Shown: piece after piece, positions 60,480 to 63,400 of the stretch
How the letters are laid out: each line of letters starts with the position of its first letter
How positions within the stretch are numbered: position 1 is the stretch's first letter
NCBI RefSeq assembly: GCF_044647545.1
Contig: NZ_CP172818.1
Reading direction: 5' to 3' (one strand)
DNA length: 64,000 nt
From: Escherichia coli
Lineage (GTDB): Bacteria; Pseudomonadota; Gammaproteobacteria; Enterobacterales; Enterobacteriaceae
Position numbers: made by a program

Positions 60480-63400
60480 TAAGCGTTATCGCTCGCGAAT
60501 ACCCGATTGCGCCCGGCCTGTTTAGCGAGATAAAGCCGACGGTCGGCCAGTGACTGGAGTTGTTCAAAATCATAATCACCGGTTTCCTCGCTGCTGCTTA
60601 CCCCCAGCGAGGCACTGATGCGTATCGTCGTACTCTTGGCGATCAACATCTCTTTTTCAATTAACTTCAGGCGAATACGTTCTGCGACCTCCGCAGCCTG
60701 CGTCAGACTCGCGCCAGGCAGAATCACACAAAACTCCTCACCACCGACCCGCCCGGCAACGTCCTGCGCACGCAAGGAACTGCTAATTAATCCGGCAGCA
60801 TGGGAAAGAACACGGTCGCCCGCCTGATGACCAAAGCGGTCATTAATCGCTTTAAAATGGTCAAGGTCGACCTGAATGACAGAAAAAGGATGTTGGTGTG
60901 TCTGACACAATTTGGCGAGCGGACGGGCTTTTTCAAACAGTGCGCCACGATTATATAAGCGGGTTAAGGTGTCGTGCCACGCCTGCCACTGCAACGAACT
61001 TTGCAGAACATACATGTTGCTGACCATCCGGCGAATCACATACCAGGAGATGAGTAACATGGTGGTAAAGAGCGCCCACAGCAGGGTTAATGCAATGCTG
61101 ATACTGCCGAAATCGCCCCGCACGCCTTCGCTTAGCGTATGGACGCGCACCAGCACACCGTCGAAATGGTCCAGACGTTCCCAGCTAACATAGCGACTGC
61201 TCATACGAATGCCGCCCCGTGTGTCATGTTCCATTGCCTGCGCCAGCAAGGCCAGTTCACGAGGATCAAAAATATTTCCTGTTGGATGGTCAGGATTGGA
61301 AGAGGTCAAAAATCTCAGCTTACTGTCATAGAGCTGATACTCACCATCGAGGTTTTTATCGATGGCGTTTCTTAAAAATTGCTGCATAGTACGCACGGGA
61401 ATACTCATCCCCAGCACGCCATACCAGTAGTTATTACTGTCTACCGGAACACTGACGGTAACCTGCGGTTCAGTATTGCTGGCGTGTTCCGGTTGCGAAG
61501 TGAACCAGCGTACCGCGCGGTGACGATTTTCTCGTTGTGAATGGCCGATAAACCAGGGTTGGGTGACATAGCCGTAATAACGCGTTGGTACATTGCGCGT
61601 AAACAAGGTCGGCTGCGTCGAAACGTAAAATCCGGCACGCGAGACATACATCGCCTGTTCTACCATCGACGAGGAGTTGTGTGCCAGTCGCAGCAAGTAA
61701 CCAACTTCCAGTGCAGCGGTAATTTCATTGTCGAGGCTTTCATTTTCGCGAGACAGGAGATTCCCCTCGCTGACTAATGCATCCGACACGCCATTGACTG
61801 GCAGGGTGCGTCGTCGGTTGAGTTCGATTTGCCAGGCGTGCTCGTCGCGATGCTGTTCGAACTCGGTTACGGCATCACGCAGAGAGGTGAAATCCAGTGG
61901 CGCTACGAGAGCTTCGCGCATGCCATTACGCAAAAAGATCAGTTTGTCGACGTTATACTGCAAATGCTTATCGAGCGCGTTGGCTACGTTTTCCAGATGA
62001 TTACGCTGGCTGGAGATATAGGCATCTTCCAGCACTACCACTTCACGCCAGGTCAGCAAGGTGGAAAAAAGCAATACCACGATAAAGCAGAGATTAACGA
62101 TATGACCAGGCCCCAGGCGGCGTGCGAGTTTTTTCAACCAGCTCTGGTTTTCCATTTTTGTCTCGTGCTGCACCCTGACGACTCCCAACCTGCTTTTTTA
62201 TGATTCTGGCATAACCCGGCGATAACGTACCGCAAAACAGCGATAATTTTATAATGGTGGCATGATAAGACGCGACTATCATTCATTGCAGGCATTGGCA
62301 CACCAGGCCGGATGTGATCCGGCCTGGTGTTAATGATACCCTTTCAAACTTCTTCCGCAGAACGACTCCCCTCCCCCGGAACAAGCTCGGTTTCATGAAA
62401 AGCTTCCCGCTTGACCCCGTACCCGTCATACCAACGACACTCAACCATACCGCTGGAGTATCCAGTGACAATCATCCGCGGGCCGCCCTCTTTAACCGTA
62501 ACTTCCTCACTAACCATAAAGCTCATACTCGCCTCCTTTTTTCGAGTGAAACTTGTTCACCTTAGTTGAAGATGGCGAATTTTGCATAATAGCCTGTGCG
62601 AGTATTAATGTGCCTGACCGCGCATTTTCGCTACGGCTTTCACTCCCAGCACCACGATGCCGCCGATGATAAATCCAAGAATCAGATTTAAAACAGTCGG
62701 TAATATCATCGCCACCACTGCACTTTGCTGCCCGGCGAAATGTTCAATGGCGTGATGCAACGGCGCAATACCATGTACCACAATCCCGCCGCCGACGAGG
62801 AACATCGCCAGCGTGCCGACAATCGATAACGCTTTCATCAACCAGGGCGCAATGATCAATAACCCTTTACCTAATGCCTGCATCAGCGCGCTGGATTTTT
62901 CCGCCAGCCAATACCCCAGGTCATCAATCTTAACGATAACCCCTACCAGACCGTAGACGCCCACGGTCACTACCAGCGCGATGCCTGAAAGCACCAGCAC
63001 CTGATTAAGCAACGGCGCTTCTGCCACAATCCCCAGCGTGATGGCGACGATTTCCGCAGACAATATAAAATCGGTACGAATCGCCCCTTTTATTTTGTCT
63101 TTTTCAAACTTCAGCGGATCCTGCGCCGCCAGCTTCTCCAGACGCTGCTGACTCTGCGCCGGATCTTCTTTATGTTTACGCGCCTCCAGCATATGCAGCA
63201 CTTTCTCTACCCCTTCAAAGCAGAGAAACGCGCCGCCAATCATCAACAGTGGCGTAATCGCCCACGGGATAAACGCACTGATGATCAGCGCCAGCGGCAC
63301 CAGAATCACTTTATTGATCAGCGATCCTTTCGCCACGCCCCAGACCACGGGAAGTTCCCGGTTGGCCCGCACGCCTGAAACTTGTTGCGCATTGAGCGAT

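Follow-up and report, generated by a model that had tools for sequence, protein, structure and literature searches.

The perfect hairpin downstream of yodC in Escherichia coli as the probable remnant of a Y-type REP element

The genes yedI (62605-63522), yodC (62344-62526, encoding 60 amino acids) and dgcQ (60479-62173, encoding a diguanylate cyclase) are located, all on the minus strand, in a stretch of 64,000 nucleotides (nt) of Escherichia coli (NCBI RefSeq assembly GCF_044647545.1, contig NZ_CP172818.1), the whole of which is hereafter called the window. yodC and dgcQ were assigned by 100% / 99% identity to annotated E. coli genomes, and the GTG start of K-12 was used for dgcQ. A first-pass annotation, made from the sequence alone, had reported a perfect inverted repeat with arms of 13 bp, CACCAGGCCGGAT GTG ATCCGGCCTGGTG, at 62301-62329 in the spacer downstream of yodC and upstream of the dgcQ start. 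The repeat was found as described and the gene coordinates confirmed its location; one extra pair, A62300/T62330, extends the perfect arms to 14 nt (62300-62313 and 62317-62330). The resulting palindrome (62300-62330, minus strand) belongs to the yodC 3' region of the mRNA and reads ACACCAGGCCGGAT CAC ATCCGGCCTGGTGT in the yodC sense, with a 3-nt loop (62314-62316) that is GTG on the plus strand and was delimited on the basis of allele alignments. Read as it is transcribed, the hairpin begins 13 nt past the yodC stop codon (UGA), from which its first paired base is separated by the spacer AAGGGTATCATTA (62331-62343, minus strand, yodC sense), and it ends 126 nt before the GTG of dgcQ; in K-12 it corresponds to 2,028,144-2,028,174. 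Comparison with other alleles and species indicates that this palindrome is very probably the surviving basal stem of a Y-type repetitive extragenic palindromic (REP) element, lengthened by complementary flanks.

The palindrome is the longest perfect hairpin-type inverted repeat within the whole window. No second copy was detected in the window at up to three mismatches, the gapped patterns GCCGGAT...ATCCGGC and GCCTGATG...ATCAGGC gave no further copies there, and none of 100 dinucleotide-preserving shuffles yielded a match to the palindrome. The predicted stability of the 31-nt hairpin was -26.8 kcal/mol, versus -20.9 kcal/mol for a canonical REP hairpin, and the fold of a 91-nt context had a z score of -5.0 for the minus strand, which is the sense of yodC, and of -3.2 for the plus strand. 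A scan of 61500-63000 against Rfam 15, with E values up to 10, returned best matches of 13.7-17.6 bits, the gathering thresholds being 40-100.

The window derives from the E. coli chromosome, and its 501-nt stretch at 62100-62600 was 100% identical to strain FDAARGOS_497 and matched in 5,364 of 5,426 complete E. coli genomes; two of the approximately 5,366 spacer matches are placed on plasmid-labelled records, which may be mis-assigned replicons or large chromosomal inserts. Alignment of the intergenic region distinguished two main alleles within E. coli. The short allele, that of the window and of K-12, was present in 4,145-4,146 of the 5,426 genomes (about 76%; at least 80% of a 43-nt or 31-nt query covered), and the long allele in 1,216 (about 22%). 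Between flanks identical to those of the short allele, the long allele carries ACACCCGACCGGATGTGGCGCTCACGTCGCATCCGGTCGGGTGT (yodC sense) with a complete TGCCTGATGCGACGCTATCGCGTCTTATCATGCCTAC alongside; the former is a 44-nt hairpin that contains a REP core, and the latter an entire Z2 REP. Comparison with the canonical K-12 copies, read elsewhere in that genome (Y type, GTAGGCCGGATAAGGCGTTTACGCCGCATCCGGCA; Z2 type, GCCTGATGCGACGCTGGCGCGTCTTATCAGGCCTAC), identified this pair as Y-type and Z2-type REPs. At the loop position the long allele and other Escherichia species have 16 nt (e.g. GTGGCGCTCACGTCGC) versus 3 nt in the window, which is therefore 13 nt shorter. The window retains the base of the Y REP stem, AGGCCGGAT in 9 of 9 positions and ATCCGGC in 7 of 7; the full-length Y consensus was not matched in the window, where the central approximately 16 nt are replaced by 3 nt. 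The Z2-type REP is represented by a remnant at 62256-62275 (minus strand), recognised against TGCCTGATGCGACGCTATCGCGTCTTATCATGCCTAC of the long allele and GCCTGATGCGACGCTGTCGCGTCTTATCATGCC of E. whittamii and other Escherichia: its 3' arm alone is kept (TCGCGTCTTATCATGCCACC, yodC sense) and its 5' arm, GCCTGATGCGACGC, is absent. A plain Y+Z2 architecture was also observed within E. coli, in the metagenomic contig L119.

Searched against the 5,426 genomes, the shortened palindrome matched its own locus only (in 4,145-4,170 of them). The E. whittamii orthologue, AGGCCGGATGTGGCGTTCACGCCGCATCCGGCAG, matched at least 40 places in 5,425 of these 5,426 genomes at 90-95% identity, and is thus a member of a multi-copy REP family. 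The genome-wide copy search proposed in the first-pass annotation would therefore have misled. In the same annotation a single-copy sequence with no transcript boundary or binding evidence was expected to dismiss the element; a single locus and no recorded boundary are what was found, although the element is REP-derived. Its suggestion that the palindrome is REP-like, on the other hand, agrees with the position of the hairpin, which is orthologous to that of full Y-REPs, each followed by a Z2-REP, in other alleles and species.

Like a Y-type REP within a bacterial interspersed mosaic element (BIME), the element is extragenic, near the 3' end of a gene and within the span of a reported K-12 transcript; it forms a palindromic stem-loop on the same basal stem, and its descent can be followed by positional orthology, with a full REP in the 1,216 E. 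coli genomes mentioned above and in all six of the six other Escherichia lineages. The long allele, L119 and other Escherichia show the alternation of Y and Z REPs that characterises BIMEs. Unlike such an element, the window hairpin lacks the 13-nt upper part, has six to seven extra perfect flank pairs, occupies one locus and has a Z2 partner reduced to one arm. The GTAG/CTAC tag of mobile REPs, the setting in which RAYT recognises and cleaves them, was not found beside it, CCAG standing at that place, and GTAG is also absent from the Escherichia orthologues of the locus; owing to the absence of this tag, the hairpin is probably immobile. Since it departs from full REPs in consensus, tag and copy number, we classify it as a decayed derivative of a REP, an ordinary feature of E. 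coli intergenic DNA and no new regulatory element. The current K-12 RefSeq record shows no repeat or REP feature at the locus, nor in either stretch examined; older K-12 records presumably annotated a REP where the current one shows none, and this absence was considered uninformative.

To place the two alleles in a wider context, orthologous loci were located through the YodC protein. A full Y-REP and then a Z2-REP follow yodC in E. albertii, E. whittamii and four other divergent Escherichia lineages, cryptic-clade included, and in two of these six lineages the pair is duplicated to give four REPs (L011 and L013, 1681-1960; E. coli E69 and E. whittamii). The yodC-dgcQ spacer has two REP copies in L007-L010 and L119, two plus a half Z2 in the long allele (L002-L006), and REP remnants only in the short allele. 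Among 72 non-Escherichia loci no REP was found after yodC. In Citrobacter, Salmonella, Kosakonia, Enterobacter, Phytobacter and others, the yodC stop codon is followed at a distance of a few nucleotides by a classical terminator, AAAACGCCCGGnnnnnCCGGGCGTTTT, and 42 of the 72 loci conformed to a strict pattern consisting of GCCCGG...CCGGGC and then a T run, at no more than 12 nt from the stop codon. As far as these alignments can tell, a Y+Z2 BIME took over the place of the yodC intrinsic terminator in the Escherichia ancestor. The window hairpin resembles the terminator of the sister genera in its position right after yodC and, roughly, in stability (-20.4 kcal/mol for the terminator), but it is unrelated in sequence and has no A or U tract, and read-through into dgcQ is documented in K-12. 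In the Citrobacter freundii group (L026, L027, L031-L033, L036; approximately 1780-1880) the yodC homologue is followed by a sequence like that of the small RNA DsrA, and not by dgcQ; this sequence includes a terminator (...GAATTTTCAAGTGCTTCTTGCATAAGCAAGCTTGATCCCGACCC...GGGATTTTTTT), and in E. coli dsrA is about 3 kb away.

With respect to termination, no T/U run flanks the hairpin on either strand, the tails being GCCAAUGCC in the yodC sense and UAAUGAUAC in the plus sense, so the earlier statement that it is not a canonical intrinsic terminator holds. A scan with consensus terminators and promoters placed no terminator at the hairpin; as the same scan missed the obvious Citrobacter terminator, whose A and U tracts pair, this negative is weak and the sequence itself was relied upon. 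The curated Term-seq 3' ends (Adams et al. 2021, PMC7815308) include none in 2,026-2,030 kb of K-12, in lists that cover LB at optical densities of 0.4 and 2.0 and M63 and whose thresholds may exceed the expression of yodC. In the SMRT-Cappable-seq data (PMC6131387) the sole operon with these genes is b1958/b1957/b1956, that is, yedI-yodC-dgcQ, whose transcription starts at K-12 2029389, and the region has no listed termination site; the libraries left out short RNAs and, like Term-seq, this data set has detection thresholds. The operon (60479-63522 in the window; K-12 2,026,323-2,029,389, minus strand) was described as a 'novel' tricistronic unit, RegulonDB having three separate units. Because there is no U tract and no curated 3' end, and because a read-through transcript has been reported, the hairpin does not act as an efficient terminator and is traversed by RNA polymerase.

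It could still act as a weak intrinsic terminator, or as a Rho-assisted terminator or attenuator of the BIME type, which would insulate dgcQ from sigma-S-driven transcription of yodC. The hairpin is very stable and GC-rich, and its position coincides exactly with that of the canonical terminator that follows yodC in the sister genera; BIMEs have been reported to attenuate transcription (Espeli et al. 2001, as cited in PMC6061677 and PMC12306157), and a Rho-dependent, bicyclomycin-sensitive termination region lies further downstream, about 730 nt inside dgcQ (K-12 2027287, minus strand, approximately 61443 in the window; PMC7815308). We regard this explanation as highly improbable, given that the U tract and any recorded 3' end or termination site are missing, that full-length yedI-yodC-dgcQ transcripts cross the hairpin, and that no C-rich, G-poor stretch follows it. 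The 80 nt downstream show no excess of C over G as at Rho-utilisation sites (C 18 versus G 16), and nothing was found in support of the Rho-dependent pause structure proposed in the first-pass annotation.

A protein-binding site had also been suggested; nothing was found in support of a site for a transcription factor. At the DNA level the palindrome might be a dimeric operator of dgcQ, a DNA gyrase site of the BIME-2 kind or a Dcm-methylation-dependent element. It is perfect and the likely promoter region of dgcQ follows about 100 nt downstream, each arm has a Dcm site (CCAGG and CCTGG; 62303-62307 and 62323-62327), and Y-REPs in BIME-2 are gyrase targets (Espeli & Boccard 1997, as cited in PMC12306157). 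In the two natural alleles, however, the distance between the arms is not the same, the difference being 13 nt, and each arm varies at two positions, so that neither the spacing nor the sequence of an operator would be preserved; the long-allele stem, CCCGACC/GGTCGGG, has no Dcm site, and the partner needed for a BIME-2 architecture has decayed in the window. GC-rich arms of 14 bp with a 3-nt loop are typical of hairpins and not of operators. Any of these DNA-level roles is therefore extremely improbable. As regards the Dcm sites, a metagenomic variant (L091, L104) has CTAGG in place of CCAGG, the change expected from deamination of 5-methylcytosine, and alignment to K-12 locates the dcm-vsr genes about 2 kb beyond yodC, past the end of the window. 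A site for RNase III, likewise suggested in the first-pass annotation, received no support either, and in this respect the hairpin is indistinguishable from any long perfect stem.

The origin of the perfect stem can be approached through the flanks of the REP. Most of the other Escherichia lineages (L008-L011 and L013) have a REP stem of about 7-8 bp, with a 3' flank (e.g. CAGTTGTG) that is not complementary to the 5' flank ACACCAG. In E. coli and the sister lineage L007 the 3' flank, CCTGGTGT, TCTGGTGT or TCGGGTGT, is the exact complement of the 5' flank of each allele. The short and long alleles differ at two stem positions on both sides (A:U versus C:G; G:C versus A:U), and over 17 distinct haplotypes 91.8% of cells were paired, four pairs having changes on both sides. 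In strain Z1323CEC0014 (L002) the hairpin, at approximately 560-603, combines the 5' arm of the short allele with the 3' arm of the long one and has two mismatches, which points to recombination of the two alleles within the palindrome.

In E. coli, quasipalindrome correction by template switching is reported to homogenise arms, to invert spacers and to favour the regeneration of perfect inverted repeats (PMC5941160; PMC8604942). The complementary flanks would most simply have originated by such homogenisation of the arms during replication. The features of the locus resemble those of this process, in that the 3' flank was perfected by a cluster of changes and paired differences separate the alleles; the loop may also have been inverted, to judge from the comparison of alleles, being CAC here versus the GTG that a single deletion can leave. 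Since clustered arm-perfecting changes are the signature of template switching, the covariation is compatible with selection on the hairpin and does not prove it.

The history of the locus can accordingly be reconstructed as follows. After a Y+Z2 BIME had taken the place of the yodC terminator in the Escherichia ancestor, the flanks of the REP stem turned perfectly complementary, earlier than the losses that mark the majority E. coli haplotype, to which the window and K-12 belong. In this haplotype 13 nt of the top of the Y-REP hairpin were lost, and the Z2 partner lost one arm. The outcome is the present 14-bp GC-rich stem with its 3-nt loop, too unlike the multi-copy family to be recovered by copy searches. 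The reverse order, with an ancestral short palindrome into which REPs were inserted later, is unlikely in view of the full REPs in all other Escherichia species sampled.

Regarding function, the hairpin is transcribed within the yodC mRNA and the yedI-yodC-dgcQ read-through transcript, where it may block 3'-to-5' exonucleases, namely polynucleotide phosphorylase (PNPase) and RNase II, and so protect the yedI-yodC part relative to dgcQ. Stable hairpins without a U tract and REPs shield Rho-terminated mRNAs from PNPase and RNase II (PMC6061677). By analogy, a REP-type RNA barrier to 3' exonucleases is the most probable role of the hairpin, although we consider the chances of this proposition evenly balanced. 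The malE-malF region is reportedly, from the work of Newbury and colleagues in 1987, the paradigm of an intercistronic REP that stabilises mRNA. As in malE-malF and in the protective hairpins of Dar & Sorek (2018), a stable stem-loop without a U tract is placed between cistrons of a read-through transcript, and in yedI-yodC-dgcQ it lies downstream of a more strongly promoted upstream gene; unlike in those systems, neither a 3' end nor a decay intermediate is mapped to the window hairpin, and no region with more C than G follows it.

An effect on yodC itself may be considered because the hairpin starts 13 nt after the stop codon. Liang, Rudd & Deutscher (2015), as cited in PMC12306157, reported translation-modulating REPs, which lower the translation of the gene before them when they lie less than 16 nt from its stop codon. 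The distance from the yodC UGA falls inside that interval, although the window hairpin, unlike those elements, is not a full REP. By analogy, it could slow the termination of yodC translation and may damp YodC synthesis.

Alternatively, the hairpin could be a functionless fossil, a decaying REP kept palindromic by template-switch bias alone and with no selected effect on the expression of yodC or dgcQ. Both REPs of the former BIME have internal deletions, and the number of REPs at the locus varies freely, L011 and L013 having four, the long allele two and a half, the short allele a remnant and the others two. Variants that weaken the stem are frequent, and the doubly mismatched hairpin of one strain is a recombinant. 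The K-12 data sets record neither a 3' end nor a termination site at the hairpin, and template switching is known to favour the regeneration of perfect inverted repeats (PMC5941160). On the other side, a stable hairpin, be it terminator or REP, was found 3-24 nt from the yodC stop codon in all closely examined Enterobacteriaceae; the deletions removed the top of the Y-REP and one Z2 arm yet spared a stem predicted to be more stable than that of a canonical REP; and the stem is paired in the great majority of cells across haplotypes, as given above. This explanation is possible but rather unlikely.

The reading that jointly accounts best for these data is that of a REP stump, left by a Y+Z2 BIME that replaced a terminator, with a role at the RNA level, and we favour it, though with reservation. 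The identity and history of the element come from the data, whereas its function is what we infer. Several observations weigh against this reading. Neither a curated Term-seq 3' end in the K-12 interval nor an excess of C over G downstream of the hairpin was found, as described above. Natural variants with a weakened stem are common: in a sample of 60 genomes evenly spread over the 4,145 with the short allele, the 31-mer was perfect in about 55%, contained an internal mismatch in about 20% (K-12 included) and had its outer pair broken in about 22%. Compensatory changes can arise by template switching without selection on the RNA. The attempt to identify the functional RNA strand from variants that preserve G.U pairs was abandoned, given that K-12 favours the yodC-sense strand and the metagenomic L091 the other, so that no functional strand is indicated. 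A single 13-nt deletion from the present-day long allele was also rejected as the origin of the short one, as it yields CGC, GGC, GTC or GTG (yodC sense) and not CAC; the CAC loop could result from two separate deletions, or from a single one combined with either a flip of the loop or a substitution.

A bolder version of the preferred reading, in which a domesticated REP stump, sharpened by template switching, was selected as an intercistronic valve in the yedI-yodC-dgcQ transcript and its alleles set different YodC:DgcQ ratios, is highly improbable. If true, it would imply a lineage-specific output of cyclic di-GMP from the same promoters, DgcQ being a cellulose-regulating cyclase.

Two further features concern the promoters of these genes. 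A chromatin immunoprecipitation peak of sigma-S RNA polymerase has been assigned to yodC (PMC4447067) and, by our own conversion of the older genome coordinates, is located just upstream of this gene. Downstream of the hairpin, a conserved block, GTTATGCCAGAAT / GTTATGCCAG(A/G)AT (62203-62215, minus strand), is shared by 15 loci of three genera, Escherichia, Citrobacter and Salmonella. It is situated about 30 nt upstream of the dgcQ start codon in Escherichia and Citrobacter, and may be a candidate -10 region of a promoter of dgcQ's own.

Taken alone, the hairpin matters little, as one more REP-derived structure at the end of a gene in the best-studied bacterial genome. It indicates, on the other hand, that a search by copy number can miss descendants of REPs that orthology among alleles and across species recovers. 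The locus offers a clean natural series, from the terminator of the sister genera through the BIME of Escherichia, with its two to four REPs, to the truncated perfect hairpin that most E. coli have, and this series illustrates the replacement of a terminator by REPs and the probable perfecting of a palindrome by template switching. Additionally, a common two-allele polymorphism directly upstream of dgcQ is relevant to studies that compare dgcQ expression across E. coli strains.

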